The notes under the pieces are model-generated. The model was not told where the DNA came from, searched no databases, and was given only the letters and a program-made list of their open reading frames with translations. From assembly GCA_024402765.1 (NCBI GenBank), contig JAKSTC010000005.1, positions 1,517 through 65,516 of the forward strand: a DNA stretch of 64,000 bases, in the 5' to 3' direction. This document shows positions 9,448 through 63,317 of the stretch, one piece after another. Source of the DNA: Alphaproteobacteria bacterium (GTDB lineage Bacteria > Pseudomonadota > Alphaproteobacteria > Rs-D84). Position 1 is the first letter of the stretch. Every line of letters starts with the position of its first letter. The position numbers and the translations under genes are program-made.

Positions 9448-9451
9448 CATA

Positions 9452-42616: not shown

Positions 42617-42693
42617 TGGTGGGTGGTATTGGGCTCGAACCAACGACCTCCACGATGTCAACGTGACGCTCTAGCCAACTGAGCTAACCACCC
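42617..42693 (-). tRNA. tRNA-Val (anticodon GAC), intact
   Basis: Reverse complement GGGTGGTTAGCTCAGTTGGCTAGAGCGTCACGTTGACATCGTGGAGGTCGTTGGTTCGAGCCCAATACCACCCACCA gives a full cloverleaf with anticodon loop TTGACAT. Confidence 0.9.
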
Positions 42694-42704
42694 AAAACGA
42701 ATAA

Positions 42705-42732
42705 ATTATAACAACTAATTTTGGATTTGCAA
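42705..42732 (-). promoter_or_regulatory. tRNA-Val promoter TTGCAA-N16-TATAAT-N11-+1
   Basis: On the minus strand, TTGCAA (42727-42732), a 16-nt spacer and TATAAT (42705-42710), with 11 nt to the tRNA 5' end. The architecture is identical to 62677-62704. Confidence 0.55.
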
Positions 42733-42770
42733 ATAAAAACGCGTTTTTTCGCTTTGGTGGCATTTAGATA

Positions 42771-42800
42771 TGATCTGCTATGATCTGTTATGATCTACTA
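42771..42800. repeat. three tandem 10-bp repeats TGATCT(GC/GT/AC)TA (iteron-like, helical phasing)
   Basis: TGATCTGCTA TGATCTGTTA TGATCTACTA read directly from the sequence. Confidence 0.8.
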
Positions 42801-42923
42801 CAAATTGTTACAGTATACTCTAGACTTTGCTCCAAAATTGCTCCTAAATGTTTTTTAGGGTTTTTACCAGTGGACTATGGCGTTTTATCTATTACTAAAC
42901 GTTTTCCCTAGATTATAAAATTC

Positions 42924-42950
42924 ATAACCTATATGATTTGAATAGGTTAT
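42924..42950. repeat. perfect 9-bp inverted repeat ATAACCTAT-N9-ATAGGTTAT
   Basis: Read directly from the sequence, in the non-coding region between tRNA-Val and the glycosyltransferase island. Confidence 0.7.
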
Positions 42951-43170
42951 AGTGCTCTTTATGCCAGTATGCTAACAACATCTTGCCCCATAGGGCAGGA
43001 AGTTAAATAAAACATTTATAAAATATCAAAATTTGACACAGGGACAGCAAATATAATAGTAGTTATATATCGCTCTAATATGGTATGCCAATACAATCGT
43101 GTGTTACAGATTTTTTTGTAATGCTTGTGATTGCTGATGTTTTGCAATTGAACGATGCATTACATATGAC

Positions 43171-44154
43171 TTATTTAAGTTGATCCTTTAATGTTTGGTA
43201 TTTTTTACGATAATGCTGACGTTTGTGTCCAAAAGTAATATGTTTTAACAAACGATAACGTAATTTTTTCAGTTTAAAATAAATCGGATGTGCTAACATA
43301 TACATAGTATGATAATCAAACTGAGGCCTTTGTGAAATTTTAAAATCTATCATCCTGGACAAAATTTCTTCATAAAACGGGGTTTTTCTGGCATAAGACC
43401 ACCAAATCTCAGCTTTTTCTTCATCGAGGTAAAGCCATGGCTTATATTCCGCACCATAATGAATAATCTGACACTCCTTTTTTAGCTTTTTTTTAACTTT
43501 AGGATCCGTGTAGGGAAGCTGAGATAAATAATTATACTTATAATCAAGATAGATACATTTATCAGATAAAAGAATGTAAAGTATATCCTGATCAAAAAAT
43601 CTGATATCATCTTTATATGTCTTATAGACCTGATTGATCTTAGAAGAAATTTGATCTTTCTTATAGAGTGATAAATTTAAAATAAGAACACCACTGTTTA
43701 TATATAATTTTTCCTTAGGCATATTAAAGGCATCAAACCAATACCTTTCCTTTTTTATCCGTGTATCAATTTGATCGGGGACCCAGGCCACATATTTACC
43801 CTTAAGATCTATATTATATATTTCCGATAAATCACATTTTACAATAATATCACTATCCAGGACAATACATTTATCAACATCCGGAATTAAATCCGGCAGA
43901 TACATCTTTGCATATACGATGGAAGCTGCTCTTGCCTGCTTAGGTATGGGATATGTACTTGTATTAACCGGAACGTACTTAATATCAAAATCCCTGATTT
44001 TTCTTAAATTTTCGATTTTTTCTTTTGATTCTTCGGATATATCATTGGATAAAATATAGAAAACGATATCACCAAAAGTGCTTTCTAAAATTGATTGCAT
44101 ACAAACATATGTATATGGAACGTAATAATTGCTTGTTGTCAATACAATATTCAT
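43171..44154 (-). CDS. glycosyltransferase family 8 (LPS/LOS hexosyltransferase-like)
   Basis: N-terminal IVLTTSNYYVPYTYVCMQSIL, DxD LDSDIIV, and HYGAEYKPW. The C-terminal ~75-aa basic extension is shared with the next gene. Confidence 0.8.
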   Translation of the reverse strand: MNIVLTTSNYYVPYTYVCMQSILESTFGDIVFYILSNDISEESKEKIENLRKIRDFDIKYVPVNTSTYPIPKQARAASIVYAKMYLPDLIPDVDKCIVLDSDIIVKCDLSEIYNIDLKGKYVAWVPDQIDTRIKKERYWFDAFNMPKEKLYINSGVLILNLSLYKKDQISSKINQVYKTYKDDIRFFDQDILYILLSDKCIYLDYKYNYLSQLPYTDPKVKKKLKKECQIIHYGAEYKPWLYLDEEKAEIWWSYARKTPFYEEILSRMIDFKISQRPQFDYHTMYMLAHPIYFKLKKLRYRLLKHITFGHKRQHYRKKYQTLKDQLK

Positions 44155-45245
44155 TTTAACACTCCTTCCATTTGCTTAACAAATTCTTTTTGTTCTTTAA
44201 TTTTTGCCTTAAGCGTCGTATATTTTTTCGTATATTTTTCTTTCTTTTTACCGAAAGTTAAATGCGTCAATAACCTGTATCTCCATTTCTTTAACAAGAA
44301 ATAAAAGGGATGTATTGTCATATAAAGGTTACGGAACTCTGGATGGGAAGGTGCTTTTAGATCCATGATTCGAACCAAAATTTCTTCATAAAAGGGGGTC
44401 CGACGGGCATATGACCACCAAATATCCGCATGCTTAATCGATGGATAGAGCCATGGTTTTTCCAGGCCTGGGAAATGGATAACTTTTGTGTCGGCGTTAA
44501 CATAATCCGGCACTTCCTCATAAACCAAAGTATTCCATCCCTCCTCTAACACCTTGATTTGTTCATTTAATACGGCATTAATAGCACATTGTTCCTGAAA
44601 TACAAAAAAATTATCATCAATTGCCTTTTTGATCACGGAATAATAATCATTTTTTCTAAATTCATCCAGGTTCATGTAAAATACACCGGTATTAAAATAC
44701 TTCCTTACATCACGTAATTTTAATGTTTCTTTGGCGTATTTGATAGAATCGGGTGTTTTGACTAAGGGGCGCCTGTTTTCAATAACTTTGACCCAAATAG
44801 GATCCGTACAAGCTGCACCTGGAATATTTTCTATATCAACCTTTGTTATTAAATAGGGATCTTTTATAAAACACAAATCACAGTCTGTAAATAAAACCTT
44901 GCTGTGTTCTAAAACCAGCGGCGCAAATAAGCGAAAGTAGCAGGCTCTGTTGAAATTATTGTGTGTTATTGTAATTTTTAACTTTGTTTCATATTCGAAC
45001 GGATTAAAAAATCGGATACTTATATTCTTTTTAGATGACTGTGACAAAAGTTTTTCTTTTAATCCCTCACTTATTTCATCTGAGAAAATGATAATATCAT
45101 AATTGTTTGTATCAGAAGCATTTTCAATAACTGATTGAAACCAAACAGATAGATATTTTACATATTCATTTGATGAACTTGTCGCCAATGTAATATAATT
45201 TTTATCAAACACGGGACGAATTTTGGTATTAGGTTCTTTTGTCAT
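44151..45245 (-). CDS. glycosyltransferase family 8, paralog of 43171-44154
   Basis: DxD-like TDCDL, HFPGLEKPW, and a shared tail WWSYARRTPFYEEIL...HP.YF.LKK.RYRLL.H.TFG.K. Overlaps its neighbours by 4 nt. Confidence 0.8.
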   Translation of the reverse strand: MTKEPNTKIRPVFDKNYITLATSSSNEYVKYLSVWFQSVIENASDTNNYDIIIFSDEISEGLKEKLLSQSSKKNISIRFFNPFEYETKLKITITHNNFNRACYFRLFAPLVLEHSKVLFTDCDLCFIKDPYLITKVDIENIPGAACTDPIWVKVIENRRPLVKTPDSIKYAKETLKLRDVRKYFNTGVFYMNLDEFRKNDYYSVIKKAIDDNFFVFQEQCAINAVLNEQIKVLEEGWNTLVYEEVPDYVNADTKVIHFPGLEKPWLYPSIKHADIWWSYARRTPFYEEILVRIMDLKAPSHPEFRNLYMTIHPFYFLLKKWRYRLLTHLTFGKKKEKYTKKYTTLKAKIKEQKEFVKQMEGVLK

Positions 45246-46552
45246 TCTATTTCCTTTCCTGTTTCAAAAGCCTGATGACTCCATAAATAATCCCATTGAC
45301 CAAAACGGCCAATGGACTCAATTCCAACAGATTGCAAATAATCTAACACAATTTGTCGATTTTCATAAATACCATGTGTAAATGTGACGTTCGCATAAGG
45401 TTCAAACCGAATGTCTTTTACCACAATATCCTCATCCGTGAAACCGCAAATTTCTTTGAGTTTTGTGAGTGTTTTTTCTAAAATTTCCTCAGCAGGTGGT
45501 ACATTATCCCGACAATCAAAGAAAACTTCGGCTTGCAAAGAGGAACATCCCTCTGGCACATTGTCTGGTGACTTTAAATTGGGTGAATAAACCCGCGCAG
45601 GTGGCACATCTTCATCATAAATATAAAACCACAGGTGCTTTGCTACATCCGACCGATTAAAGCCCAACGATACCTGATATCCGCATGTCCAATGAAGTTT
45701 TTGCGCTGCCTGTTGCACAGTTTCTGGACAATTATCAATGATTTTCACCATTTCTGGCAGGGGCAAAGACGAAATCAATCGGTCATATTTACCGCTGGTC
45801 CCGTCAGCAAAAAAGACCTCTTTTTGCTTGGAATCGATACGAATAACCTTTTTGTTGAATTGAATATCTAACCCCTTGCGGCAATCATCCAATATGCTGC
45901 GGAATCCCCCTTTTTTAGGGTAGCGCATCACAGATGTATAATAAAAATTCTCATCTTGTGTTTCAAAAGCCCCCTTTAAAACCTCGGACAAATCTGGGGA
46001 ATGAATACGTTTTCCTATCCATTTTGTCTCCATATTTTTTGGGTCTTGCCCCCAATATTTTTTAGTATAGACAAATGGGAAATGTTCGGCAAAATACATC
46101 CCGTTTTGAACCTTCAGCCATTCTGCATAATCTGTAATTTGAGTTTCTTCTTTTTGGGGACGATTCACAAAATCTTGAATAATATTTGTTTTTTCCTGTG
46201 CTGATAAGGGCGCTAAATTATTTAAGGCAGGGTGTTTTAACCACGCCCCATGATAATAATTATAGGACACAGACGGATGTTCATAAAGGGAAGATGATTT
46301 TTCAAAAATCCCTTTGATATAAGGGTCATTTGTGAACGTAAAATGCACAAAACGATCAAAACGGAAACCATTGATTGTAAAATATCCACACAGACCACCC
46401 CAGTCACTGTCCTTTTCATAGATAACAGTATTGGTTCCTTTTTGTTTCAGGTGATAGCCAGCCGAAATGCCGGCTATTCCTGCACCCAAAATAACTGTTT
46501 TATTTTGCAAGGTGTTCCCCATGTTCGTTAATTTGTTTAACACAGAAATCAT
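45242..46552 (-). CDS. FAD/NAD(P)-binding oxidoreductase (amine oxidase / UDP-galactopyranose mutase-like fold)
   Basis: Rossmann motif VILGAGIAGISAGYHL...YEKDSDWGG. The true start may be the internal MGNTLQ (46522). Confidence 0.7.
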   Translation of the reverse strand: MISVLNKLTNMGNTLQNKTVILGAGIAGISAGYHLKQKGTNTVIYEKDSDWGGLCGYFTINGFRFDRFVHFTFTNDPYIKGIFEKSSSLYEHPSVSYNYYHGAWLKHPALNNLAPLSAQEKTNIIQDFVNRPQKEETQITDYAEWLKVQNGMYFAEHFPFVYTKKYWGQDPKNMETKWIGKRIHSPDLSEVLKGAFETQDENFYYTSVMRYPKKGGFRSILDDCRKGLDIQFNKKVIRIDSKQKEVFFADGTSGKYDRLISSLPLPEMVKIIDNCPETVQQAAQKLHWTCGYQVSLGFNRSDVAKHLWFYIYDEDVPPARVYSPNLKSPDNVPEGCSSLQAEVFFDCRDNVPPAEEILEKTLTKLKEICGFTDEDIVVKDIRFEPYANVTFTHGIYENRQIVLDYLQSVGIESIGRFGQWDYLWSHQAFETGKEIE

Positions 46553-47579
46553 ACATATCTTTGGTGTTCAGGGCTTCTTTATACCAATCCACCGTTTTTT
46601 GAACAGCATCTGTCAAACCCCATTTAGCTTCCCATTGCAACATTACATATGCCTTTGTAACATCTAAGTTCAGTAATGTATTTTCATGTACTGCATTTGG
46701 ATCAGAAGCATCAACAACTTCACCTTTTCCATAATATTCTACCAATCTGCGAACAACTTCTAACACTGGCTTATTTGCAGAAATATGTGGACCGAAATTG
46801 AAGTTTGTTGAATACTTAACAGGTTCTTCTAGTAGTTTTTGACCAACTTTTAAATAACCTGACAATGGTTCTAAAACATGTTCCCAAGGACGTGTTGCAA
46901 TCGGATTTCTAATTTCAATTGGTTTACCTGCTTCAATAAATCGAATACAATCTGGAATTAATCTGTTGTCAGACCAATCTCCACCACCAATAACATTTCC
47001 TGCACGCACTGTTGCTATAGCTTTTCCGTGTTGAGCATATTTATCTGGATTAAAATAAGACTGACGATACGCATGCAACATTAATTCTGTACAACCTTTA
47101 GAGGCTGAATACGGATCTTCTCCACCCATTCGATCTGTTTCTTTGTACCCCCATATTTGTTCTACATTTTCATAACATTTGTCTGAAGTAATCATTATAG
47201 CAGTTTTTAAACAATCGTTCATTCTCATTACTTCCATAATATTTAAAGACCCCATAATATTTGTTTCAAAAGTTTCTCTGGGATGTTCATAAGATGTTCG
47301 TACTAATGCTTGTGCTGCTAAGTGAAAAACAATTTCAGGTTTATATGTTTTGACGACTTCATCCAAATGTTTTAAATCGCGTGTATCACCACGCAAATCT
47401 GCATATAAATGCTCTTTTAAATGACAAGCACAATAATTTCCTTTATCTGAATATGGATCTAAAGAATAACCAATAACTTTTGCTCCCATCATAGTTAACC
47501 AAATTGATAACCACGACCCTTTAAATCCCGTATGTCCTGTTACTAAAACAACTTTATTTTTATAAATATTATCGTACAT
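46500..47579 (-). CDS. rfbG: CDP-glucose 4,6-dehydratase
   Basis: VLVTGHTGFKGSWLSIWL, YSASKGC, and length and tail typical of RfbG. Located next to rfbF. Confidence 0.85.
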   Translation of the reverse strand: MYDNIYKNKVVLVTGHTGFKGSWLSIWLTMMGAKVIGYSLDPYSDKGNYCACHLKEHLYADLRGDTRDLKHLDEVVKTYKPEIVFHLAAQALVRTSYEHPRETFETNIMGSLNIMEVMRMNDCLKTAIMITSDKCYENVEQIWGYKETDRMGGEDPYSASKGCTELMLHAYRQSYFNPDKYAQHGKAIATVRAGNVIGGGDWSDNRLIPDCIRFIEAGKPIEIRNPIATRPWEHVLEPLSGYLKVGQKLLEEPVKYSTNFNFGPHISANKPVLEVVRRLVEYYGKGEVVDASDPNAVHENTLLNLDVTKAYVMLQWEAKWGLTDAVQKTVDWYKEALNTKDMYDFCVKQINEHGEHLAK

Positions 47580-48471
47580 TTTTTTGCTCCTTCCACCATT
47601 TGATAGTTTGTTTTAATCCTGCTTCTAAAGAATATCTAGGTTGCCAACCTATAGATTTTAATTTTTCATTATTACCAACTACAAGATCTTCCCCAAAAGC
47701 AGCGGGAATAGAACCCCATAAAATTTTTCCTTTAAAATTTGTAAACTCTGCTATTTTGGTTACAATTTCTTTTAGCTGCACAGGTTTACCAGAACAAATA
47801 TTCACAGCCCCATGCAAATCAGATTCAAAGACATCCACAATAGCTCTTGCAGTATCTTCTACATGTAAATAATCTTGAAATTTTAAACAATCACTAACTT
47901 TAACATCTTCATTATTAAGGCACGAATTTATAACCGAAGGCATTAATCTTGTAGGTTTTTCATTCGGCCCATAAAGATTAAATATTCTAGGCCATTTAAA
48001 TATTATATCGTTTTGGTTACAAAATACTTTTGCAACATTAAATACAGCATTTTTACCATTACCATATAAAGTTTTTGGATCTGTTGGTGTTTCATCCTCT
48101 AACAAATAACCGTATTTATATTCATATTCAGAACAAGTACCTGCGCCTAAAAATCTTTTTCCGCCATGATCTTTAAAACTTTTCAATAAATTTAGAGTCG
48201 TTATAACCCAATCTAAGTTTAAATCAGATGTATGACATCCTTTGCCAACATACCATGCTAAATGTATCAAATTTTCGAAATGGTGTTCCGACATAAATTT
48301 ATCAACAACAGATATATCCATTAAATTCATGTCATAACATATTAAATTCTTTTGTTTTGCAGGTTGTGAACCATAAACTATAGCATGTACTTCATAACCA
48401 CGTTTTAATAATTCATTCGTAACATTGGTTCCTATAAAACCAGTGCTACCTGTTATTAATACTTTTTGCAT
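47569..48471 (-). CDS. NAD-dependent sugar epimerase/reductase (extended SDR)
   Basis: VLITGSTGFIGTNV and YGNGK (YxxxK). Lies in the CDP-hexose operon. Confidence 0.8.
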   Translation of the reverse strand: MQKVLITGSTGFIGTNVTNELLKRGYEVHAIVYGSQPAKQKNLICYDMNLMDISVVDKFMSEHHFENLIHLAWYVGKGCHTSDLNLDWVITTLNLLKSFKDHGGKRFLGAGTCSEYEYKYGYLLEDETPTDPKTLYGNGKNAVFNVAKVFCNQNDIIFKWPRIFNLYGPNEKPTRLMPSVINSCLNNEDVKVSDCLKFQDYLHVEDTARAIVDVFESDLHGAVNICSGKPVQLKEIVTKIAEFTNFKGKILWGSIPAAFGEDLVVGNNEKLKSIGWQPRYSLEAGLKQTIKWWKEQKNVR

Positions 48472-49251
48472 TTAGTCCTCCCACTTTTTCCAAGGGGCTT
48501 TATTATTATCCCATAAATTGTTTAATAACTCTTTATCTCTTAACATATCCATTGGATGCCAAAATCCTTCATGTTTATAAGCTTCTAATTGATTGGCTTC
48601 TACTAATCTGTGTAATGGATCTGCTTCCCACATAACATTTTTATCATCTGGAATATATTTAAGAACATCTGGTTCACAAACAAAAAAACCACCATTAATC
48701 CAATTTCCGCCTGCTTGTGGTTTTTCTTGAAAACCGATAATACTATTATCTTTTCCAAACTCCAAAACCCCAAAACGACCAGCGGGTTGTATCGCTGTCA
48801 TTGTTACTAATTTTCCAGATTGTTTATGTTGTTCTAATAATTTGTTAATATCTATATCGGATACACCATCACCGTAAGTTAACATAAAAGGTTCTTGTCC
48901 TATATATTTTTCGGCTTTTTTTATTCTGCTTCCTGTTAATGTATTTAATCCTGTGTCTAATAATGTAACTTTCCAAGGTTCACATTTACTTGTATGTATG
49001 TTCAGTTTATTGTTTGCTAGATCTACTGTTATATCTGAATGATCTGCATAATAATCCATAAACCAGCGCTTTATCATTTGTTGTTTATAACCACACAAAA
49101 CGACAAAATCATTAAAACCATAATATGAATAAATCTTCATAATATGCCATAAAATTGGTTGTCCTCCAATTTCAACCATTGGTTTTGGTTTTAAAATTGT
49201 TTCTTCACCAAGTCTGGTTCCTAAACCACCGGCTAATATTAATACTTTCAT
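48472..49251 (-). CDS. rfbF: glucose-1-phosphate cytidylyltransferase
   Basis: MKVLILAGGLGTRLGEET..KPKPMVEIGG.PILWHIMK and GFWHPMDMLRDK, characteristic of RfbF. Confidence 0.9.
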   Translation of the reverse strand: MKVLILAGGLGTRLGEETILKPKPMVEIGGQPILWHIMKIYSYYGFNDFVVLCGYKQQMIKRWFMDYYADHSDITVDLANNKLNIHTSKCEPWKVTLLDTGLNTLTGSRIKKAEKYIGQEPFMLTYGDGVSDIDINKLLEQHKQSGKLVTMTAIQPAGRFGVLEFGKDNSIIGFQEKPQAGGNWINGGFFVCEPDVLKYIPDDKNVMWEADPLHRLVEANQLEAYKHEGFWHPMDMLRDKELLNNLWDNNKAPWKKWED

Positions 49252-50195
49252 AATTTTCTCCTTGTTTTTCTAATACCTAAAATTCTGATTCTTATATTCT
49301 GTGTTATTGGATGCTTTGTAATAGAAAACATTTTTTGCATAAAAGTAGGAGAATTATATCTTTTTAAAGAGTTATATATTTCTTTCCATACAACAGTTTT
49401 TGTAATATAATTCATACTATCTGGAAATTGTGTTAAAGTTTGTATAGGTAAAGATTTAAATAAAAACTTAATTAATGATTCGCTTTCAATATTTGTTGGT
49501 AATGTTTTGAATGCTTCGTCTAACACATCGTATGTTGATTGTTTTTGATCCAATAAGCTTATACCATGTATGGTAGAAAAATCATAAATAACATAATGAT
49601 AAAAATCATTTTTATCAACAATTACACTTTTGGCAAAAAAAACCGCTTGAATTAAAAAAAAGTTATCAGCATAAACACTTAAGTTTTTTTTGCTAAAATG
49701 TATATTGTGCGTGTATATAAAATTTCTATTAAATAGCTTGTTCCAAACAGCACCATTTTCAATAATATCAAATAGATTGTTGTTTCTAGAATCTTTTAAG
49801 GTATGTTTTATGGTTTTATCTTTATGTTCTTCAAAGTAACCACAAGTTATAATATCTGACTTATTATATTTAACCAAATTATATAAATTTTCGTAATAAT
49901 TTGAATCCACATAATCATCAGAATCACAAAAACCAATATATTCACCTCTCGCTTTTTTAAGTCCAGCATTCATAGCTTGTGAGTAACCAATGTTTTTGCT
50001 AAACTTAATAAGTTTCAAATTTTTTAAAGATGATTTATATTGAGAAATAATATTATTTGTAAATACATTACATCCATTGTCTATGATGATAAATTCTATA
50101 TCATCTAACGTTTGTTTAGATAAAGATTTTAAACATCTTTCCAAAGCAAACTTGTTTGTATTATAAACGGGCATAATAACAGAAACTTTTATCAT
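49248..50195 (-). CDS. glycosyltransferase family 2
   Basis: VSVIMPVYNT...IIDNG... and DSDDY (DxD). Confidence 0.8.
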   Translation of the reverse strand: MIKVSVIMPVYNTNKFALERCLKSLSKQTLDDIEFIIIDNGCNVFTNNIISQYKSSLKNLKLIKFSKNIGYSQAMNAGLKKARGEYIGFCDSDDYVDSNYYENLYNLVKYNKSDIITCGYFEEHKDKTIKHTLKDSRNNNLFDIIENGAVWNKLFNRNFIYTHNIHFSKKNLSVYADNFFLIQAVFFAKSVIVDKNDFYHYVIYDFSTIHGISLLDQKQSTYDVLDEAFKTLPTNIESESLIKFLFKSLPIQTLTQFPDSMNYITKTVVWKEIYNSLKRYNSPTFMQKMFSITKHPITQNIRIRILGIRKTRRKL

Positions 50196-50226
50196 TATAC
50201 ATACTCCATATTTTTCAAGCGTTTAA

Positions 50227-51093: not shown

Positions 51094-51096
51094 TGT

Positions 51097-51669: not shown

Positions 51670-51715
51670 TTGATTTCTTGTGTTTTTTTTATATTTTGTA
51701 TTTATAAAACAAACC

Positions 51716-51757
51716 AACGATTGTTTAATATGCTGGTTAATTCAAATCTATAGACAG
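51716..51757. repeat. 42-bp block conserved upstream of both recombinase genes (copy 1)
   Basis: AACGATTGTTTAATATGCTGGTTAATTCAAATCTATAGACAG matches 63959-64000 at 38 of 42 positions, in the same orientation. An extra GTTAATTCAAAT lies at about 51809-51820. Confidence 0.8.
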
Positions 51758-51867
51758 TATAAAAACCTTGTATACGCCGGTTTTCTAGTGTTTTTAATAC
51801 ATCAAACAGTTAATTCAAATTAGGAAATTTTATGTTGATTTAAACGTTGGTTTAATTTGTACCAGTT

Positions 51868-54739: not shown

Positions 54740-54747
54740 GTCTTTTT

Positions 54748-55992: not shown

Positions 55993-57314
55993 TATTCATC
56001 CCCCAATTCTGATTTTATATCACCAATAGCCAGCGCAACCGCGGCACGTTTTACATACAAATCATATTTTGCAGCATTATTTTGTTTTTGTGCATCAACC
56101 AATTCATTTTGCGAGGTTTGCCAATCTAGCATTGTGGCGCGTCCAACCTTGTACATACCGGACGTAACGCGTTCTGATTCGGTTGCAGATTTTAACAAAC
56201 TTTCTGTTTGTTTTAATACAGTGCGTGCTGTTTTATAATTCTGATACGCCGTAAACACATCCATCATCGCGTTGTTTGATGTATTTCTTTCTGATTCAAT
56301 CGCCGCATCATACGAAGCATTCGCACTGCGCACACCATACATATTTGCAAAGCCTGCAAATATCGGCATAGATATAGATATTCCAATTGTTCCATTTGGC
56401 GTATTTGTTTGTGGTGCACCAACGCCATATGATGTATTTTTATCCCACCCCATTGACGCATTTGCAGATATAGACGGCAAATTTTTCAGGAACGATGCAT
56501 TTCTGCGATGCCATGCCGCATCCTTGTTCGCCGCCGCCCGCAACAGGTCAGGGCGCTTTTTTTGGGCAATAGAAATTAATTCATCAATACTGTCGCTTTC
56601 TGCGTCAGATCCAAATGTTGCAGACATATCAACAATCGATATTTCCTTATCTGCCGGGAAAGACAATTTTGTTAACAAAGCCCCCTTGGCAATTTCACGA
56701 TTATTTTTTGCGCGCTCTAAGGTTAATTCCGAACCCGCCAATGTGGTTTCTGATTTATAGACATCGGCCTTGGCTACTGCGCCCGCCTTAAATTTCTTAG
56801 ACGCCATTTCATTTGCGTTTTTTGCAACATTTAACGCACTGGTTGCAGCATTAACATCAGCATCTGCCTTTAACAATTCATAATACGCGCCAACCACAGA
56901 ATAAACATAATTTTGAATTGTTTCATCATAATCAAAACCCGTTGCACGATATGTCGCCAATGATTCATTTAAATCTGCCAATCTTTTACCAAAATCAAAC
57001 AACAAATATGATGCAGATATAGATGGCCCACGATGCGACCAATCGTCGAACTGACTGCCGGCATAAGAATTACTGAACGAATAACCAATTGATGCAGATG
57101 GCAAATATGATGCGTATGACCGATTTTTATTAAAACGCGCCGCACGCAGCGATGCATACGCAGACGCTGTTTGTGGATTACGACACAGCCCCAGTTCCAC
57201 CACCTCTTGGATACTTAATTCCCTATCAGGAACATCACGCAATGTTGCACAATTTTCATCCGCCATAGCGACAACAGGCAACAATGCAAAAAGCACAGAA
57301 AACACATATTTCAT
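55992..57314 (-). CDS. TolC-family outer membrane channel
   Basis: Signal peptide, two repeat halves with coiled-coil segments (RAARFNK...YLP, LL.A.....A), 440 aa. The stop overlaps the adaptor start. Confidence 0.87.
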   Translation of the reverse strand: MKYVFSVLFALLPVVAMADENCATLRDVPDRELSIQEVVELGLCRNPQTASAYASLRAARFNKNRSYASYLPSASIGYSFSNSYAGSQFDDWSHRGPSISASYLLFDFGKRLADLNESLATYRATGFDYDETIQNYVYSVVGAYYELLKADADVNAATSALNVAKNANEMASKKFKAGAVAKADVYKSETTLAGSELTLERAKNNREIAKGALLTKLSFPADKEISIVDMSATFGSDAESDSIDELISIAQKKRPDLLRAAANKDAAWHRRNASFLKNLPSISANASMGWDKNTSYGVGAPQTNTPNGTIGISISMPIFAGFANMYGVRSANASYDAAIESERNTSNNAMMDVFTAYQNYKTARTVLKQTESLLKSATESERVTSGMYKVGRATMLDWQTSQNELVDAQKQNNAAKYDLYVKRAAVALAIGDIKSELGDE

Positions 57315-57442
57315 ACTACATTCCCTTTATATATCTATGTAATTATATCAGTTTTTATACCCAGGTCAAAACAAAATCAAATTCCTAAAAATTTTATGTT
57401 GAAATTGAAAAAAAAATTCCCTATTATGCGCATACAGTTTAT

Positions 57443-57516
57443 GGCCAGGTGGCAGAGTGGTTATGCAGAGGACTGCAAATCCTTGGATGCCGGTTCGATT
57501 CCGACCCTGGCCTCCA
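57443..57516 (+). tRNA. tRNA-Cys (anticodon GCA)
   Basis: GGCCAGGTGGCAGAGTGGTTATGCAGAGGACTGCAAATCCTTGGATGCCGGTTCGATTCCGACCCTGGCCTCCA. Anticodon loop CTGCAAA. One C-A mismatch in the T stem. Confidence 0.85.
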
Positions 57517-57526
57517 CTATTAAGTT

Positions 57527-58609
57527 ATGATTAAAAATATTATTCTGACAAATTTCCGTAATCATACTATGTCCCGCATTAAAACAGATGGGGCACAAAC
57601 AATTGTTATACTGGGGCCAAACGGATCTGGCAAAACCGCAACCATAGAGGCAATATCAATGTTATCTGGCGAACGCGGAATGCGTGGTGCAGATATGGGC
57701 GAAATTGCGCGGTTTAATGGGGATGGCTCTTTTGCTGTATATTCTGAATTAAATGACGAATCGAATGTTTCTGTATATTTTAATCCTGGTGATACAAACC
57801 GCCATGCAAAAATGGATAACGAAAATATCCCGTTATCAAATTTGGCAAATAAATTAAAAGTAGTTTGGTTAACACCAAAAGAAGATAGATTGTTTGTTGA
57901 TTCGGTATCTGACAGACGCGCTTTTTTTGATAGGCTTTGTTGTGCATTTAATAGCACGCATGCCGGTCGCGTTGCAAAACTGAATAAATTATTAACAGAA
58001 CGCGCAAATGTATTAAAAACAAAACCAGATGATTTACTGTTAAATATTTTGGACGATGATATTGCATCAACATCTGTTGCAATTTGCGATACCAGAATCG
58101 CGTATGCGGGCGCATTAAATTACTATCTCGAAAAAAACGCAATTTCACTAAATGGATTTGTTGAAGAAATGCTTATATCAGGTCTGACCCCGGGGGATAC
58201 AGAACGCAAATATCGCCAATACCTGTCCCAGACACGCGAATTAGTAGGCGACAAAATGGTAATTGATGGTCCGCACAAATCTGATTTCGGAATGGTTAAT
58301 AATATTCTGAAACTGCCTGTGAGCCTGACCAGCACTGGCCAGCAAAAAATGGCACTGTTTGATTTAATTTTAGCACATGCAAAATTATTGAAAGACAAAT
58401 CAAAGGGGGGGGCAATTATCTTACTGGACGAAGCGGTCGCACATTTGGATACCGACGCCAGACGCGAATTGTTTGAAAACCTTACCAAATGCGATGCACA
58501 AATTTGGGCAACTGGTATTGATGCAGAGATGTTTAAATTTGCAAAAAATGCAATATTTGTTACTTGCCAAAATGGGTCAATTAGTAATATAGTAAAACAC
58601 GATGTCTAA
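57527..58609 (+). CDS. recF: DNA replication and repair protein RecF
   Basis: Walker A GPNGSGKT, SMC-like signature TSTGQQKM and Walker B ILLDEAVAHLD. Confidence 0.9.
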   Translation: MIKNIILTNFRNHTMSRIKTDGAQTIVILGPNGSGKTATIEAISMLSGERGMRGADMGEIARFNGDGSFAVYSELNDESNVSVYFNPGDTNRHAKMDNENIPLSNLANKLKVVWLTPKEDRLFVDSVSDRRAFFDRLCCAFNSTHAGRVAKLNKLLTERANVLKTKPDDLLLNILDDDIASTSVAICDTRIAYAGALNYYLEKNAISLNGFVEEMLISGLTPGDTERKYRQYLSQTRELVGDKMVIDGPHKSDFGMVNNILKLPVSLTSTGQQKMALFDLILAHAKLLKDKSKGGAIILLDEAVAHLDTDARRELFENLTKCDAQIWATGIDAEMFKFAKNAIFVTCQNGSISNIVKHDV

Positions 58610-59072
58610 AATTGATTATCAATCTTTATTGGATAATGCGTTAAAATCTGTGGTTAAGGATGCGCTGGTTCACGCACAAATAAACGGACTGGGCGATGGC
58701 ACGCATTTTTACATAACATTCAAGACGCGCGATAATGGCGTGGTATTGCCAGACTTTCTGCGCATGCGTTATCCTGATTTGATGACGATTGTATTACAGT
58801 ATTCATACAATAATTTACATGTGTCCGATCGCGAATTTGGTGTTCAGTTAACTTTTGATGGTCGTCCGTTTTTTATACGCGTTCCTTTTTCTGCGTTGGT
58901 GGAATTTAAGGATCCGTCTGTTGATTTTATACTTACATTTCATCCACAACAACAACCTGTGTCGGCTGATAATGATATGGAATTACCACTGGATGAAAAG
59001 CCTGATTCCATTCCAGACGACAAACGTGTTGTTTCATTGGATGAATTTAGAAAACAAAAATCAGGTTTATAA
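58602..59072 (+). CDS. sspB: ClpXP adaptor SspB (alphaproteobacterial type)
   Basis: HFYITFKTRDNGVVLPDFLRMRYPDLMTIVLQYSYNNLHV...VPFSALVEFKDPSV closely follows the alpha-type SspB pattern (HHFYITF.T...GV.....L...YP.EMTIVLQ). Confidence 0.8.
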   Translation: MSKIDYQSLLDNALKSVVKDALVHAQINGLGDGTHFYITFKTRDNGVVLPDFLRMRYPDLMTIVLQYSYNNLHVSDREFGVQLTFDGRPFFIRVPFSALVEFKDPSVDFILTFHPQQQPVSADNDMELPLDEKPDSIPDDKRVVSLDEFRKQKSGL

Positions 59073-59098
59073 AAACGCACCATTTGGTGCGTTTTTTA

Positions 59099-60238
<1,140 letters not shown>

Positions 60239-60260
60239 TTATTCTGATATTATAAGCGTT

Positions 60261-60605
60261 ATGCGAGATACGATAAAAAAACATAGTGATTTTATAACTG
60301 ATATGGATGTGCCAATTGCGCGCAGCCACTTTTTTTTAGTCAAAATCGTTCCAACACGTTTTGCTAACGGGGCACGATATGGAATCATGGCAACAAAAAA
60401 AACATTTAAATTTGCGTTCCAGCGCAATCGTGCAAAACGCCTGATACGCGATTGGGCACGTTTTTGTGAAAAATATATGATGCCCGAATATGATTATATT
60501 TTTATCGCCAGAACTGGCATTTTGGATGCCACCAGGGATGATGGCAGACAGGCAATGACAAAGGCCTTAAAATATCTAAAAGTTACAAATGGCACAAAAA
60601 AATAA
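60261..60605 (+). CDS. rnpA: ribonuclease P protein component
   Basis: KKTFKFAFQRNRAKRLIRDW (RNR motif region), 114 aa, upstream of yidD. Confidence 0.8.
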   Translation: MRDTIKKHSDFITDMDVPIARSHFFLVKIVPTRFANGARYGIMATKKTFKFAFQRNRAKRLIRDWARFCEKYMMPEYDYIFIARTGILDATRDDGRQAMTKALKYLKVTNGTKK

Positions 60606-60828
60606 ATCTTTTGGTGCACGCGTCGCACTGTGGCTTATTAACACATATCAAAAATATATCTCCCCGGTTATTGGCGGAAAATGTGTATGCAGGTATATAC
60701 CGACATGTAGTGAATACACCAAACAAGCGATTGAAAAATATGGTTTTTGGCGTGGCACTATAATGGGGATTAAACGAATTTCACGTTGCAGGCCCGGTGG
60801 CGGGTTCGGATACGACCCTGTTCCTTGA
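60589..60828 (+). CDS. yidD: membrane protein insertion efficiency factor YidD
   Basis: YQKYISPVIGGKCVCRYIPTCSEYTKQAIEKYG...RISRCRPGGGFGYDPVP. Confidence 0.88.
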   Translation: MAQKNKSFGARVALWLINTYQKYISPVIGGKCVCRYIPTCSEYTKQAIEKYGFWRGTIMGIKRISRCRPGGGFGYDPVP

Positions 60829-60885
60829 CAATTTACTTAATAATGGTAAAATTATAGATGATATTAACTATAAAAGGATTTTTGT

Positions 60886-61311
60886 ATGACTTCTTTTCGT
60901 GCAACTGTTGAAAACATGTCCAAGATTATGGACGACATGGGAATAACAGAACTTGATTTAGAACGCCAATTTTTGTTTGGTGTATATCGCAAACATATTC
61001 ATTTATCCAAGGGGGCAACGGTTACTATGCCGACAATGCCGGTTGTGACACCGAACAAGGCCCTTGACAGCGTAAAAACAAACGCATTAACATCACCAAT
61101 GGTTGGGGTTGTGTATTTATCCCCTGAACCAAACGCAAAGCCATTTGTTACCGTTGGTGCACACGTGAACGCGGGTGATACAGTTGCATTGGTAGAGGCT
61201 ATGAAGACCTTTAATCTAATCAAAGCGGACAAAGACGGAACTGTGAAAGAAGTTTTGGTTACCGATGGTGCCGCTGTTGAATTTGGTCAACCATTAATTA
61301 TTATTGAATAA
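60886..61311 (+). CDS. accB: acetyl-CoA carboxylase biotin carboxyl carrier protein
   Basis: Biotinylation motif VEAMKTFN and SPMVGVVY. Confidence 0.9.
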   Translation: MTSFRATVENMSKIMDDMGITELDLERQFLFGVYRKHIHLSKGATVTMPTMPVVTPNKALDSVKTNALTSPMVGVVYLSPEPNAKPFVTVGAHVNAGDTVALVEAMKTFNLIKADKDGTVKEVLVTDGAAVEFGQPLIIIE

Positions 61312-61313
61312 AA

Positions 61314-62663
61314 ATGCCAAAAATAAAAAAAGTTTTAATCGCTAATCGTGGCGAAATCGCATTGCGTATAATTCGTGCATGTCGTGATATGGGTATTCGA
61401 ACGGTCGCCGTTTATTCAACCGCAGATAGGGATGCGATGCACACACAACTGGCTGACGAATCTGTATGTATTGGGCCAGAAGGCGCCAAAGATTCGTACC
61501 TTAATGAATCTGCAATTTTGACCGCCGCCTTATTAACAAATGCGGATGCGATTCATCCGGGGTATGGTTTTCTGTCTGAACGCGCAGACTTTGCGCGCAA
61601 GGTTGAACAACATGACATGATTTGGATTGGTCCAAGTCCGGACATGATTGAACAAATGGGGGACAAGGTTAACGCCAAACAAACCGCAAAAAAGTGTGGG
61701 TTGCCTGTTGTTCCGGGTTCTGATGGCGCAATCAAAAGTTTGAACGATGCACTTAAATGGGCAGACAAAATCGGTTATCCTGTAATGTTAAAGGCGGCGG
61801 CCGGTGGTGGTGGTCGCGGTATTCGTGCCGTCAATTCCCGCGAAGATATGGCAGAAGCGTATCAAGTAACAAAGAATGAGGCACAATCTGGTTTTGGCGA
61901 TGATACACTGTATATGGAAAAATTGTTGTTGCATCCACGCCATATAGAATTTCAGATTTTGGGTGACAAACATGGCAATGTTGTTGTATTTGGTGAACGC
62001 GATTGTTCTATGCAACGTAAAAACCAAAAACTTATGGAAGAATGTCCTGCGGCAATTTTAACACAAAAGCAACGCGATGATATGATTGAAATTTGCAAGG
62101 ATGCCGCAAAAAAAATGGGCTATACAAACGCCGGCACATTTGAATTTATGTTCGAAGATGGCAAATTTTATTTCCTTGAAATGAATACCCGTCTACAGGT
62201 GGAACACCCGGTAACAGAGGCTGTATATGGTATCGACCTGGTTCGCGAACAAATAAGAATTGCCGCCGGTGAAAAGTTGGGATACAACCAATCAAATATC
62301 GTTCCACATGGTCATGCGATTGAATTTCGTATCAATGCCGAAGACCCTAAAACATTTGTTCCAAACCCTGGCAAAATCACACTATACGCACCATCGGGTG
62401 GACTGGGCGTGCGTGTAGATTCTGCAGTTTATACGGGTTATACAATTCCATCAAACTATGATTCAATGATTGCAAAATTAATTGTTCATGCACAAAATCG
62501 TCCTGCATGTATTATGCGTGCCGATAGGGCATTAGAGGAATTTGTGATAGATGGAATAAAAACAACAATTCCACTACAGAAAAAATTACTGGCAAACAGC
62601 GATGTTCGACAGTTAAAGATTGATAATCATTGGTTGGAAGAATACTTAAAAAAGTCAGAATAA
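61314..62663 (+). CDS. accC: acetyl-CoA carboxylase biotin carboxylase subunit
   Basis: KVLIANRGEIALRIIRAC, GYPVMLKAAAGGGGRG, EMNTRLQVEHPVTE. Confidence 0.95.
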   Translation: MPKIKKVLIANRGEIALRIIRACRDMGIRTVAVYSTADRDAMHTQLADESVCIGPEGAKDSYLNESAILTAALLTNADAIHPGYGFLSERADFARKVEQHDMIWIGPSPDMIEQMGDKVNAKQTAKKCGLPVVPGSDGAIKSLNDALKWADKIGYPVMLKAAAGGGGRGIRAVNSREDMAEAYQVTKNEAQSGFGDDTLYMEKLLLHPRHIEFQILGDKHGNVVVFGERDCSMQRKNQKLMEECPAAILTQKQRDDMIEICKDAAKKMGYTNAGTFEFMFEDGKFYFLEMNTRLQVEHPVTEAVYGIDLVREQIRIAAGEKLGYNQSNIVPHGHAIEFRINAEDPKTFVPNPGKITLYAPSGGLGVRVDSAVYTGYTIPSNYDSMIAKLIVHAQNRPACIMRADRALEEFVIDGIKTTIPLQKKLLANSDVRQLKIDNHWLEEYLKKSE

Positions 62664-62676
62664 AAATACTTTATTG

Positions 62677-62704
62677 TTGCAATCAGCGTTTTGTTTGATA
62701 TAAT
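62677..62704 (+). promoter_or_regulatory. intact tRNA-type promoter TTGCAA-N16-TATAAT-N11 in front of the truncated tRNA-Val copy
   Basis: TTGCAA 62677-62682 and TATAAT 62699-62704, with 11 nt to G62716. The hexamers and spacings equal those of the intact tRNA-Val promoter, while the spacer sequence differs. Confidence 0.55.
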
Positions 62705-62715
62705 GCCTACGCTTT

Positions 62716-62756
62716 GGGTGGTTAGCTCAGTTGGCTAGAGCGTCACGTTGACATCG
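62716..62756 (+). pseudogene. truncated tRNA-Val (first 41 nt only, ending 2 nt past the anticodon loop)
   Basis: 41 of 41 identity with positions 1-41 of the tRNA-Val at 42617-42693 (opposite strand). The sequence diverges at 62757 (AGACTATCC...), and no T arm or acceptor 3' strand follows. Confidence 0.88.
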
Positions 62757-62977
62757 AGACTATCCTTTCAATTATTTATTTTTGTTTTTTCCTTGTTTTC
62801 TGCGGGTTACGACGTTTTTTTATTCATTTTTTATCACATTTTTTATTATTTAGGAGCATTTTGAGAGCATTTTTTGTTTTTTAGTTCTAATAAACATAGA
62901 TGGGTAGATGCTCACAGATACAGAACATAAATTATCTCTTTATGGACTACTCCTAGGTAAGGTGAAAATGCAAAAAA

Positions 62978-63307: not shown

Positions 63308-63317
63308 CAAGAGTAAA

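Follow-up and report, generated by a model that had tools for sequence, protein, structure and literature searches.

DNA inversion switches of the Hin/Gin/Cin/Pin type are worked by serine recombinases of about 190-200 amino acids with a C-terminal helix-turn-helix (HTH) domain. Hin-type sites have the form of imperfect palindromes with AA at the centre (hixL is TTCTTGAAAACC-AA-GGTTTTTGATAA), and in Hin/Gin-type systems and in Mpi, the multi-site promoter invertase of Bacteroides fragilis, more than one site pair per genome allows large inversions. Genomic islands targeted to tRNA genes are defined in the Islander database (Hudson, Lau and Williams, PMC4383910), and the anticodon-loop sublocation of such sites is summarised, after Williams 2002, in a passage of bioRxiv 10.1101/2020.11.02.365908. 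The same preprint describes Klebsiella pneumoniae islands at the 5' end of a tRNA-Arg gene (arg2, D-loop sublocation). At a tRNA-Arg gene of T. kodakarensis, integration of an element was followed by a chromosomal inversion that left partial and full copies on opposite strands (PMC9897764), and the integrase Int-pTN3 drives chromosomal inversions in Thermococcales (PMC5495485). Each part of the locus described here is a known kind of biology; the combination is unusual.

The window, the whole stretch of 64,000 nucleotides analysed, comes from a small gut bacterium, a relative of Candidatus Enterousia within Rs-D84, a group of uncultured Alphaproteobacteria with reduced genomes (PMC12306168). 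Most likely, a 10-kb glycan island inserted into a tRNA-Val gene, bringing its own promoter and tRNA front half; the island's invertase, R, then probably flipped 12 kb of adjoining essential genes and split the island in two. We hold this two-step history, 5'-type integration followed by R-driven inversion, to have somewhat better than an even chance of being correct as a whole. The features at the two island ends are as follows.

42617-42693, minus strand: intact tRNA-Val(GAC) gene (ARAGORN; Rfam tRNA, 63.9 bits)
42653-42696, minus strand: left copy of the 44-bp perfect repeat, TTT plus tRNA positions 1-41
42828-42849, minus strand: arm-like motif 1, ATTTAGGAGCAATTTTGGAGCA, on the island side, about 95 nt upstream of the -35 box of promoter P'
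43171-51093, minus strand: island cargo, eight co-oriented surface-glycan genes (Pfam; composition)
62713-62756, plus strand: right copy of the 44-bp perfect repeat, with tRNA-Val positions 1-41 at 62716-62756
62848-62869, plus strand: arm-like motif 2, ATTTAGGAGCATTTTGAGAGCA, 92 nt into the island from the fragment junction

The original observation, that gene and fragment are identical over tRNA positions 1-41 plus three T residues and that identity stops 2 nt after the anticodon loop, was confirmed by direct reading and exact-match search: the window holds one 44/44 nt inverted repeat, ending at the CG of the 3' stem arm. An inexact repeat search extended it to 62 nt at 90% identity. We estimate the chance of a 44-nt exact repeat in 64 kb at about 1e-17, so that none is expected. 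The fragment at 62716-62756 (plus strand) was called by neither ARAGORN nor Rfam. At its junction (TCACG-TTGACAT-CGAGA) four of the five stem pairs are kept, and the dyad symmetry of the anticodon stem-loop survives. Exact-match search found no further tRNA-Val piece of 13 nt or more in the window; there is thus no 3' half at 51.8 kb or elsewhere in it, as had been claimed for the far end of the left island part.

The flanks of both tRNA pieces had been described as AT-rich accessory DNA, and their GC contents, 0.326 (42697-51717) and 0.325 (62757-64000) versus 0.41 in the core blocks, bear this out. Pfam assigns the cargo to two GT8 genes, an FAD oxidoreductase, a 4,6-dehydratase, an epimerase, a sugar-1-P nucleotidyltransferase and two GT2 genes. 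As in Islander islands, an intact tRNA gene and a displaced end fragment mark AT-rich accessory DNA, the identity block stops at the symmetric anticodon stem-loop, and the regenerated gene would be part native and part element. Unlike in those islands, the displaced piece is the 5' half, and fragment and gene lie on opposite strands, an arrangement that the Islander orientation filter rejects. A further difference is that the whole window, the reconstructed island included, was found to lack an integrase gene, which makes site-specific integration only a putative mode of insertion.

Both island parts carry a recombinase gene beside a copy of an invertible segment.

51097-51717, minus strand: RL, first gene of the glycan operon
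51703-51730, plus strand: site a, hix-like imperfect palindrome TATAAAACAAACC-AA-CGATTGTTTAATA, central AA at 51716-51717
51718-51846: seg1, complete 129-bp copy of the invertible segment, between RL and the antiporter gene
51832-51862, minus strand: site b, inner half ATGTTGATTTAAACG, outer half GGTTTAATTTGTAC, central TT (plus strand) at 51847-51848
51849-63958: proposed inverted segment, about 12.1 kb, suggested by synteny and site layout
63318-63917, minus strand: R, 199-aa small serine recombinase of DNA invertase type (PF00239, E 1.4e-32)
63948-63975, plus strand: site c, CAATTTAATAG-AA-CGATTGTTTAATAAG, central AA at 63959-63960
63961-64000: seg2, second segment copy, beside R and continuing past the window end

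Among solved structures, R is closest to two Gin invertase entries, 4m6f and 3uj3, and 200 relatives were found, in gut and rumen metagenomes. RL is 19% identical to R (BLASTP, E 1e-7), lacks the active-site Ser and Arg, keeps the C-terminal HTH and has no Pfam Resolvase match (its L094 homologue has a weak HTH_38 match); judged from these residues, RL is a catalytically dead paralogue of the invertase. In four related loci (L092, L094, L095 and L098) RL homologues adjoin the switch, with RL and R homologues as divergent neighbours and only a 139-bp invertible segment between them, and in L094 and L095 a GT2 homologue adjoins RL.

Among relatives, conserved flanks surround a segment of 128-143 bp beside R, with hix-like half-sites of 12-13 nt on either side of a central AA; nearly all related loci have a site of the site a type some 188 nt upstream of R. 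Of the 21 related loci typed, 13 have the segment in orientation A and 8 in orientation B; seg1 is in orientation A and matches the L107 segment at 102/139 positions forward versus 81/139 in reverse. L086 and L088 have identical flanks (140/140), and their segments match at 73/139 positions forward and at 128/139 as the reverse complement. Across the segment from R, relatives carry a divergent surface gene, either RL with glycosyltransferases or a YadA-like adhesin. The segment probably acts as a phase-variation switch. It resembles the Hin/Gin/Cin/Pin and Mpi systems in the size and type of R, in its palindromic sites, in its position directly upstream of the recombinase and in its surface-structure neighbours. 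It differs from Hin/Gin/Mpi in its length of only 128-143 bp, in that no promoter or enhancer was identified within it, in its two unlike outer half-sites and in its hosts, uncultured Rs-D84 Alphaproteobacteria with reduced genomes (PMC12306168), where the activity of R is predicted from its sequence. The complete segment beside RL has a second L-type half-site as its far flank; a segment flanked in this way on both sides might be an ordinary orphan switch rather than a recombination product.

In the window R and RL lie 12 kb apart and each retains one segment copy. The R flank is joined to seg2, which matches the start of seg1 at 90% identity across D4, a 42-nt direct repeat (90% identity) found upstream of both R and RL; in site c the R-proximal outer half-site thus runs into the beginning of a segment. 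No more than about 20 nt separate the outer half-site of site b (AAACC-AA-CG) from the antiporter stop codon. Sites b and c are oppositely oriented, their central dinucleotides match, and recombination between them gives back the canonical junction, ...GTTGATTTAAACG-TT-CTATTAAATTGAAG..., that relatives have upstream of R. Both breakpoints originally predicted, one between the two recombinase genes and the other beside the antiporter gene, agree with this layout, as RL and R are neighbours in the four related loci and site b adjoins the antiporter.

The second step of the proposed history would therefore have been recombination by R between its own R-proximal site and the outer site of an orphan segment copy adjoining the antiporter gene, with site b (centre 51847/8) as the left and site c (centre 63959/60) as the right breakpoint. 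The stretch between them, 51849-63958, holds the antiporter, gene blocks D and C, tRNA-Cys, blocks B and A (mreB-like gene, accB, accC), promoter P, the tRNA fragment, a 109-aa ORF and R. Flipping b-c back would restore the RL-switch-R order of the four related loci and a 10.35-kb island between accC and metG. The inversion would thus have separated R from RL with one segment copy each and turned the tRNA pieces into an inverted repeat 20 kb apart, so that the island now looks like two; with its att-like junctions inverted, it could no longer excise. In this history seg2 would be a full segment ending ...GTTGATTTAAWCG followed by a half-site; only its near end falls within the window, which thus shows just half of the orphan switch. 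Against this step, almost every species of the genus has a rearranged gene order around accC, so inversions occur there without R being required, and the other block boundaries yielded no hix-like sites. The junction of fragment, 109-aa ORF and R occurs in none of the relatives compared and the ORF has no homologues; the un-inverted state is accordingly a reconstruction. The end state, an inverted tRNA fragment and a full gene, each beside part of one former element, is like that in Thermococcales. Those cases differ in being archaeal and in involving SSV-type tyrosine integrases acting on att sites or short homologies; here the proposed breakpoints are at serine-invertase sites and not at the tRNA pieces.

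An unlikely alternative is that the flip occurred at the 44-bp repeat itself. Before it, an intact tRNA-Val gene would have stood by accC and the island by the antiporter gene, with an attP-like site (arm motif, P' with tRNA 1-41, arm motif); recombination of the gene with the inverted island copy, by an integrase in an intramolecular attB x attP reaction or by RecA on 44 bp, would have inverted 20 kb in one step. Inversions normally end in repeats, and this repeat exactly bounds the 20-kb segment; the flip restores a fully native accC-P-tRNA-Val-metG junction and joins both arm-like motifs around one core, as in an unintegrated attP. Read along the tRNA sense strand, the two 22-nt motifs do point the same way, and a search of 2.2 Mb of related DNA found the full motif only at these two sites (the looser pattern GGAGCA-N4-8-GAGCA gave four more, chance-like matches). 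Integrase-driven inversions between att sites and tRNA halves are, moreover, documented in Thermococcales (PMC5495485, PMC9897764). However, a flip at the repeat implies that R and RL were convergent at opposite island ends, whereas the four related loci show divergent neighbours; it leaves the L-type half-site end of the RL segment and the second segment copy of R unexplained, and requires a separate, unexplained island insertion beside the antiporter; moreover, no integrase was found. The diverged homologous modules that had been noted in both flanks are real, and comprise R and RL, D4 and the 22-nt motif.

It is improbable that the arrangement is an assembly artefact, a mis-join at the 44-bp repeat or at the 90%-identical segment copies of a genome that is truly un-inverted. 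The source is of metagenome type (protein records lead to the very large WGS-type assemblies GCA_024500545.1 and GCA_024500515.1), the contig of 65,826 bp ends within 1.8 kb of seg2, as contigs often do at repeats, and an invertible region that is heterogeneous in the population can yield chimeric paths. Against this, 44 bp is below usual read lengths and final k-mers and is normally resolved, composition is consistent and gene ends are sensible on both sides of each junction, and a mis-join would alter orientation only, leaving the extra promoter and tRNA half and the split R/RL pair in place.

The integration step of the two-step history rests on the promoters and on relatives.

42705-42732, minus strand: promoter P', TTGCAA-N16-TATAAT, with a small terminator-like hairpin ahead of it
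62677-62704, plus strand: promoter P, TTGCAA-N16-TATAAT, beginning 14 nt past the accC stop codon
62978-63307, plus strand: 109-aa ORF, downstream of P and the tRNA fragment

A promoter scan upheld the claim that the two promoters match in hexamers and spacing (N16 and N11) and differ in their spacers: both have a TG extension and a -10 box ending 11 nt before tRNA position 1, and over the 50 nt upstream they share only 30/50 positions. P' is closer to the tRNA-Val promoters of L020 (39/50; 87.5% over 40 nt) and L008 (37/50), and P to that of L023 at the same position after accC (38/50). From these comparisons P' looks imported, a genuine tRNA-Val promoter of a different lineage, because it is only 60% identical to P and 78% identical to that of another species; this fits the earlier proposal that the element supplied a replacement 5' half and promoter. 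P would be the native tRNA-Val promoter, now reading into the island. The two junctions also have an att-like anatomy: identity breaks off at the anticodon stem-loop, and the 22-nt arm-like motif, absent from the rest of the 2.2 Mb searched, stands on the island side of each in one orientation.

The predicted collinearity of accC, tRNA-Val and metG holds: accC, promoter, tRNA-Val and metG are contiguous in at least nine Enterousia relatives. The order accC-promoter-tRNA-Val(+)-metG-queH is contiguous in L014, L018, L019, L022, L023, L027 and L028 and is present with an insert in L010, L012 and L034. L014 and L023 have the exact gene order of the window from 52785 to accC (blocks D-C-B-A), followed directly by tRNA-Val and metG (Pfam tRNA-synt_1g), the gene directly downstream of the intact tRNA-Val in the window. 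Elements have used tRNA-Val as an integration target in this genus: a 7.8-kb island adjoins it in L122, with a tyrosine integrase, an R homologue and a 19-nt 3' repeat adjoining metG, and 3' tRNA-Val scars of 19-27 nt occur in L002, L028 and L034. Elsewhere, L088 carries an island with integrase and R at tRNA-Thr, and L101 an integrase-less island between 45-nt repeats that begin in the anticodon loop.

From an ancestral accB-accC-P-tRNA-Val-metG, a circular AT-rich element would have recombined with tRNA-Val in or beside the anticodon loop, probably by a tyrosine integrase acting in trans or lost later. Its attachment site would have been unusual in consisting of a foreign promoter, P', and tRNA positions 1-41, as most elements bring the 3' part; a repeat that covers the 5' half means that the element had to bring a promoter. 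The product would be accC-P-tRNA(1-41), then the 109-aa ORF, R, the switch, RL and eight glycan genes, then P'-tRNA-Val-metG: a 10.35-kb island between 44-bp direct repeats, its working tRNA run from the imported P'. In this model the intact gene is the regenerated one (attR), with promoter and positions 1-41 from the island and native positions 42-77 adjoining metG, and 62716-62756 is the displaced native 5' half (attL), through which P would be left reading into the 109-aa ORF. The Klebsiella arg2 islands are similar in their rare upstream-side integration and in a repeat spanning the 5' part of the tRNA; they cross over in the D-loop and encode their own integrase, whereas here the block extends over 41 nt, as far as the anticodon loop, and no integrase is left.

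Very unlikely, too, is a history with no 5'-type integration, in which one of two tRNA-Val genes, or the copy at an L122-like 3' island, was truncated by a deletion of tRNA positions 42-77 and an adjacent integrase: degenerate tandem tRNA-Val copies do lie upstream of the gene in L009, L010, L023 and L027, and the fragment sits where the whole tRNA would if the order R, integrase, tRNA of L122 and L102 is set beside R, 109-aa ORF, tRNA(1-41), but the tandem copies have one common promoter and a spacing of 85 nt rather than 10 kb, P' resembles promoters of other species more closely than it does P, which argues against in-genome duplication, exact-match search found no L122-type 19-nt 3' repeat in the window, and the break lies precisely at the anticodon stem-loop, whose symmetry is kept. 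The 109-aa ORF had zero homologues among 5.8 billion proteins and zero Pfam matches; it is weakly similar to the 101-aa att-proximal ORF of the L122 island (28% identity, E 3e-7).

Three tRNA genes were identified in the window by ARAGORN, in agreement with Rfam; among them is tRNA-Val(gac) at 42617-42693 on the minus strand. Rfam returned nothing for the tRNA fragment at 62.7 kb, and nothing besides tRNAs anywhere in the window. Direct reading and an exact-match search revealed one 44-nt perfect inverted repeat (42653-42696 and 62713-62756, identical at 44/44 nt), made up of TTT and tRNA positions 1-41. The fragment proper (62716-62756, plus strand) is a true end fragment of the tDNA, not an internal one, and as assembled the fragment and the tDNA lie on opposite strands, 20 kb apart. 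The original prediction had described an inverted duplication of 41/41 nt with three further T residues upstream, identity ending 2 nt past the anticodon loop, matching promoters before both copies, AT-rich flanks at both tRNA pieces and no tRNA fragment at the far end of the island beside the intact gene, and all of these features were recovered. The repeat stops after the first two bases of the anticodon stem's 3' arm (CGTGG in the gene, CGAGA in the fragment), and the dyad TCACG-TTGACAT-CGAGA is kept at the fragment junction. According to the summary of one survey, the anticodon stem-loop is a symmetric sublocation used by tyrosine integrases (bioRxiv 10.1101/2020.11.02.365908). GC content is 0.326 on the 5' side of the intact gene (42697-51717) and 0.325 on the 3' side of the fragment (62757-64000), compared with 0.41 for core genes. 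An exact-match search of the window yielded no further tRNA-Val pieces of at least 13 nt, and the window is the only one of 26 tRNA-Val loci examined to carry a 5'-half repeat.

The promoter TTGCAA-N16-TATAAT, with a TG extension, sits 11 nt before both repeat copies, and a conserved promoter travels with tRNA-Val in all relatives. The promoter before the fragment (P, 50 nt, starting 14 nt past the accC stop codon) is identical at 38/50 positions to the promoter in the same place in L023, one of 35 related Enterousia and gut loci used for comparison (L001-L035). The 50 nt before the intact gene (P') match P at only 30/50 positions, and match the promoters of L020 and L008 at 39/50 and 37/50. 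Judged from these identities, P' is a real tRNA-Val promoter from another lineage, which speaks for DNA brought in by the island and against a recent local duplication. The idea that an element supplied a replacement 5' half together with its promoter is supported by the closer likeness of P' to L020 than to P. No terminator was predicted between P and a 109-aa ORF (62978-63307), and P may still fire into this ORF. Both junctions are accompanied, on their island side, by a 22-nt motif, ATTTAGGAGCA(A)TTTTG(A)GAGCA, at 42828-42849 and at 62848-62869; read along the tRNA sense strand, the two copies point the same way. In 2.2 Mb of related sequence the full motif has no further occurrence, and a looser pattern had four more, chance-like matches. 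As a sequence pattern the pair resembles the arm-type sites of one attP. Scans of viral contigs matched neither the fragment junction nor the arm motif.

The nearest relatives of AccC, at 84-87% identity, are found in MAGs of Candidatus Enterousia and gut Alphaproteobacteria; genomes of the Rs-D84 lineage are under about 1 Mb (PMC12306168). Window proteins and the tRNA were mapped onto 35 such accC neighbourhoods (L001-L035). In seven of them (L014, L018, L019, L022, L023, L027 and L028) accC is followed, within 0.25-1 kb and on the same strand, by tRNA-Val, and then by metG and queH, with tRNA-Thr(cgt) after queH where the locus extends that far; an insert interrupts this order in L010, L012 and L034. 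L014 and L023 have the exact window order from the gene at 52785 to accC, and then directly tRNA-Val and metG. Contiguity of accC, tRNA-Val and metG in relatives had been put forward as a check on the original prediction, and by the seven contiguous loci the two halves of the locus were once joined. The target site is empty in relatives, and the DNA between the repeats is of foreign composition (island GC 0.33 vs core 0.41).

Two recombinase genes bear on how the halves were separated. R (63318-63917, 199 aa) is a small serine recombinase (PF00239 at residues 3-144, E 1.4e-32) with the motif YIRVSSNKQ and a weak HTH_38 match at residues 167-196; its best PDB matches are the Gin invertase entries 4m6f and 3uj3. 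RL (51097-51717, 206 aa) is a distant paralogue of R without the catalytic Ser and Arg. A metagenome scan found 80 loci (L081-L160) with R homologues at 68-88% identity, and nearly all that extend far enough upstream share one layout about 190 nt before R: ...ACAAACC-AA-CGWTT [segment] AAWCG-TT-CTATTAAATTGAA...ATG. The sites bounding the segment, AAACC-AA-CGWTT...AAWCG-TT-CTATT, are conserved in about 40 loci, and the segment between them is 128-143 bp long. These sites are imperfect palindromes around a central AA and closely resemble hix and gix sites. Segment orientation, typed in 21 related loci, was A in 13 and B in 8, a comparison between genomes and not within one population. L086 and L088, for example, are identical at 140/140 positions in the left flank, and their segments match at 73/139 positions read forward and at 128/139 when one is reverse-complemented. 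By sequence, by the form of its sites and by the inversion observed between genomes, the switch is of the Hin/Gin type. Its divergent neighbour is a YadA-anchor adhesin in L088 and an RL homologue in L092, L094, L095 and L098, with glycosyltransferases after it in L094 and L095; RL and glycosyltransferases are also the neighbours in the window, and all these genes are of surface type. A consensus scan detected no promoter in the window's complete segment, and an alignment of 20 segments showed only AT-rich conserved blocks; because no promoter was found, transcriptional control by the segment is putative.

Several minor observations concern the same switch. When L086:1851-2038 is aligned with L088:8952-9139, the right flank matches at 47/48 positions, the R genes at 86% and the inverted segment at 92%, a mosaic that, on the alignment, suggests exchange of switch regions between genomes or switch copies. 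An L-type site at L088:1846 was rejected as a second switch, as it lies inside a coding region. L126 (positions 4828, 9893(+) and 10146(-)) carries a MITE-like element of about 290 bp and, 5 kb off, one extra single copy of its repeat; the element's terminal inverted repeats (…AGGTATTTACAAAAACCAACGTTTGTGTAATA…) contain a near-copy of the L-type invertase site and the segment start. Among the papers that mention the genus Enterousia, no report of phase variation was found.

The window contains two copies of the invertible segment, seg1 and seg2, with hix-like sites at their edges:

51703-51730: site a, after RL
51718-51846: seg1, a complete segment
51832-51862: site b, with a second L-type half-site as its outer half, no more than about 20 nt from the antiporter stop codon
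63948-63975: site c, the normal R flank joined to the start of seg2

seg2 is 90% identical to seg1 and continues beyond the window end; it would run for about 90-100 more bases, ending ...ATGTTGATTTAAWCG-TT, and then reach its outer half-site. Exact-protein look-ups with R, AccC and the 109-aa ORF led to gene-sized records of GCA_024500545.1 and GCA_024500515.1, none of them with DNA beyond the gene. Sites b and c face in opposite directions, and their central dinucleotides match. Exchange between them inverts 51849-63958 (12.1 kb), which brings back the RL-switch-R order and the junction upstream of R in their canonical forms, and also sets accC-P-tRNA(1-41) and P'-tRNA-Val-metG in direct orientation around the island. 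Only after this proposed inversion is reversed do the fragment and the tDNA share one orientation with the 5' fragment upstream. The un-inverted arrangement would have the junctions RL-seg1-CTATTAAATTGAAG-R and antiporter-AAACC-AA-CGATTGTTTAATAAG. We give a somewhat better than even chance to the reading in which the island entered tRNA-Val and a b x c inversion of 12.1 kb then split it. R would have catalysed this inversion, and an orphan switch would already have stood beside the antiporter. The two breakpoints originally predicted, one between the recombinase genes and the other beside the antiporter, coincide with sites c and b. The broader claim of a tRNA-targeted island split by an inversion is supported and sharpened, with the site-specific insertion and the catalysis by R as its presumptive steps. 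The tRNA break itself was rejected as a pseudo-site of R, since the junction GACATCG/AGACT has no AAACC-AA-CG-like core.

A single flip of 20 kb between the two copies of the 44-bp repeat, in an ancestor whose island had an intact attP-like site, appears unlikely. Its junctions would be accC-P-full tRNA-Val-metG and P'-tRNA(1-41)-AGACTATCC, and it accounts for the repeat at both ends of the 20-kb segment and unites the two arm motifs. It calls for an ancestral island with R at one end and RL at the other, in conflict with four related loci, and leaves the two segment copies unexplained; the adjacency of RL, switch and R in those relatives speaks against it. Misassembly at the repeats is improbable. 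The contig, 65,826 bp long and part of a very large assembly, stops near the second segment; a mis-join would change orientation alone. Equally improbable is that one of two tRNA-Val genes, or an L122-like arrangement, was truncated: degenerate tandem tRNA-Val copies in L009, L010, L023 and L027 and the R-integrase-tRNA order in L122 and L102 speak for it, the foreign promoter P' and the break at the anticodon loop against it.

In almost every species among L001-L035, five small blocks have been permuted and inverted (mreB-accBC; tRNA-Cys with two genes; two other blocks of two genes each; and tRNA-Val-metG-queH), and inversions are therefore frequent in the genus. We attach a low probability to the stronger reading in which R is still active genus-wide, recombines different switch copies as well as its own 139-bp switch, and reversibly flips the 12 kb here. 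If that were so, the inverted DNA would include essential genes (the mreB-like gene, accBC and tRNA-Cys), and with every flip the glycan island would change from excisable, with direct att repeats, to locked, with inverted att repeats, or back. Recombination between switches would then add to the extreme gene-order shuffling across Enterousia, as a bacterial serine-recombinase counterpart of the integrase-driven chromosome flipping in Thermococcales. No repeat or hix-like site was found at the block boundaries in L001-L035, and hix-like sites were rejected as marks of the other synteny breakpoints there, no L-type site with a segment being present. The antiporter was likewise rejected as a conserved neighbour of the block labelled D; it is missing from 35/35 accC loci. 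In L002 and L024, tRNA-Val alone is inverted relative to both neighbours.

The reconstructed island is 10.35 kb long and comprises the 109-aa ORF, R, the switch, RL and eight glycan genes. A tblastn search with the L122 integrase found no integrase in the window, and a Pfam search of island ORFs of at least 100 aa found no tyrosine recombinase; because there is no integrase, we infer the site-specific nature of the insertion from its anatomy. tRNA-Val is an integration target in the genus. In L122, tRNA-Val is followed by a tyrosine recombinase of 564 aa (PF00589 at 25 bits, DUF6538), an R homologue and methylase genes; 7.8 kb from the gene (L122:4629), next to metG, the tRNA 3' end recurs as a 19-nt repeat that bounds this full integrase island. 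In three species, direct repeats of the tRNA-Val 3' end (AGTCCAATACCACCCACCA), 19-27 nt long, occur 130-180 bp from the gene and are empty scars:

L028:12587, 3'-end scar
L034:13646, 3'-end scar
L002:5061, 3'-end scar

A comparable island with an integrase and R lies at tRNA-Thr in L088. The island of L101, bounded by 45-nt repeats whose start falls in the anticodon loop, lacks an integrase. Searched for homologues among 5.8 billion proteins, the 109-aa ORF matched nothing but itself, and in a pairwise comparison it was 28% identical to a 101-aa ORF adjoining the att repeat of the L122 island.

Elsewhere in the window, an AT-rich stretch at 6150-11709 encodes a PLD-like nuclease, a DUF3768 protein, a Rep (ORF2/G2P) protein and a C5 cytosine methylase. 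Homologues of these genes adjoin R in L083, L088, L089, L091, L097, L128 and others, and 8517-8528 match the R-proximal half-site (AATAGAACGATT) over 12 nt; the stretch may be what is left of an R-type island that now lies 50 kb from R. Over 110 nt, 42924-43033 resembles DNA downstream of R in L081; this similarity, which contains a short hairpin flagged as terminator-like and recurs in L088, was dropped because it does not discriminate between the models.

Every component of the locus is of a known kind, and it is not a new kind of system; what is new is the proposed combination of a promoter-donating attP with a split by the island's own invertase, and, for such systems, the host lineage. 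The Islander logic (PMC4383910) applies in that the tDNA is regenerated and a fragment displaced, but the Islander filters would reject the locus for its orientation as assembled and for want of an integrase gene inside the element. Two ordinary mobile-DNA mechanisms, tRNA-targeted integration and an invertase switch, together disguise the island, which would be missed because standard finders reject opposite-strand fragments and expect the tRNA 3' half. Integration on the upstream side is rare but has been described at Klebsiella arg2, in the D-loop (bioRxiv 10.1101/2020.11.02.365908). The present locus is a clear case of this 5'-side configuration, in which the element must donate a promoter, keeping an apparently single-copy tRNA gene alive. 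In Thermococcus kodakarensis, integration followed by inversion left partial and full tRNA copies on opposite strands (PMC9897764), and integrase-driven flipping is known from T. nautili (PMC5495485). Many genomes of Enterousia, uncultured gut Alphaproteobacteria with genomes under 1 Mb, carry the newly recognised, conserved Gin-like invertase and a 139-bp invertible segment adjoining adhesin or glycan genes, and the switch offers a testable handle on surface variation and genome instability in this lineage.

The region upstream of tRNA-Val varies in other ways among the relatives. An apparently RL-like gene in this position in L008 was rejected, as it is kinase-like and the resemblance is due to chance. 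A conserved element of about 150-180 nt lies directly upstream of the tRNA-Val promoter in L018 (11600-11790), L012, L019, L022 and L002, with a variant in L024 and L035. The L018 type has no Rfam match and is missing in the window between accC and P; it contains paired-looking stretches (…CCCTCCAACC…GGTTGGAGC…), and in L002 it inverts together with the tRNA. In four loci the promoter is followed first by a second, degenerate tRNA-Val copy, 85 nt upstream of the real gene:

L009:2557-2640(-), degenerate tRNA-Val copy
L010:11926-12010, degenerate tRNA-Val copy
L023:11525-11605, degenerate tRNA-Val copy
L027:12174-12255, degenerate tRNA-Val copy

The 5' 20 nt and the anticodon arm of these copies are conserved and the D and T arms have decayed; they go back to an old tandem duplication or else represent a processed leader. 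At the corresponding position, L014, L017, L026 and L035 have shorter leader remnants.
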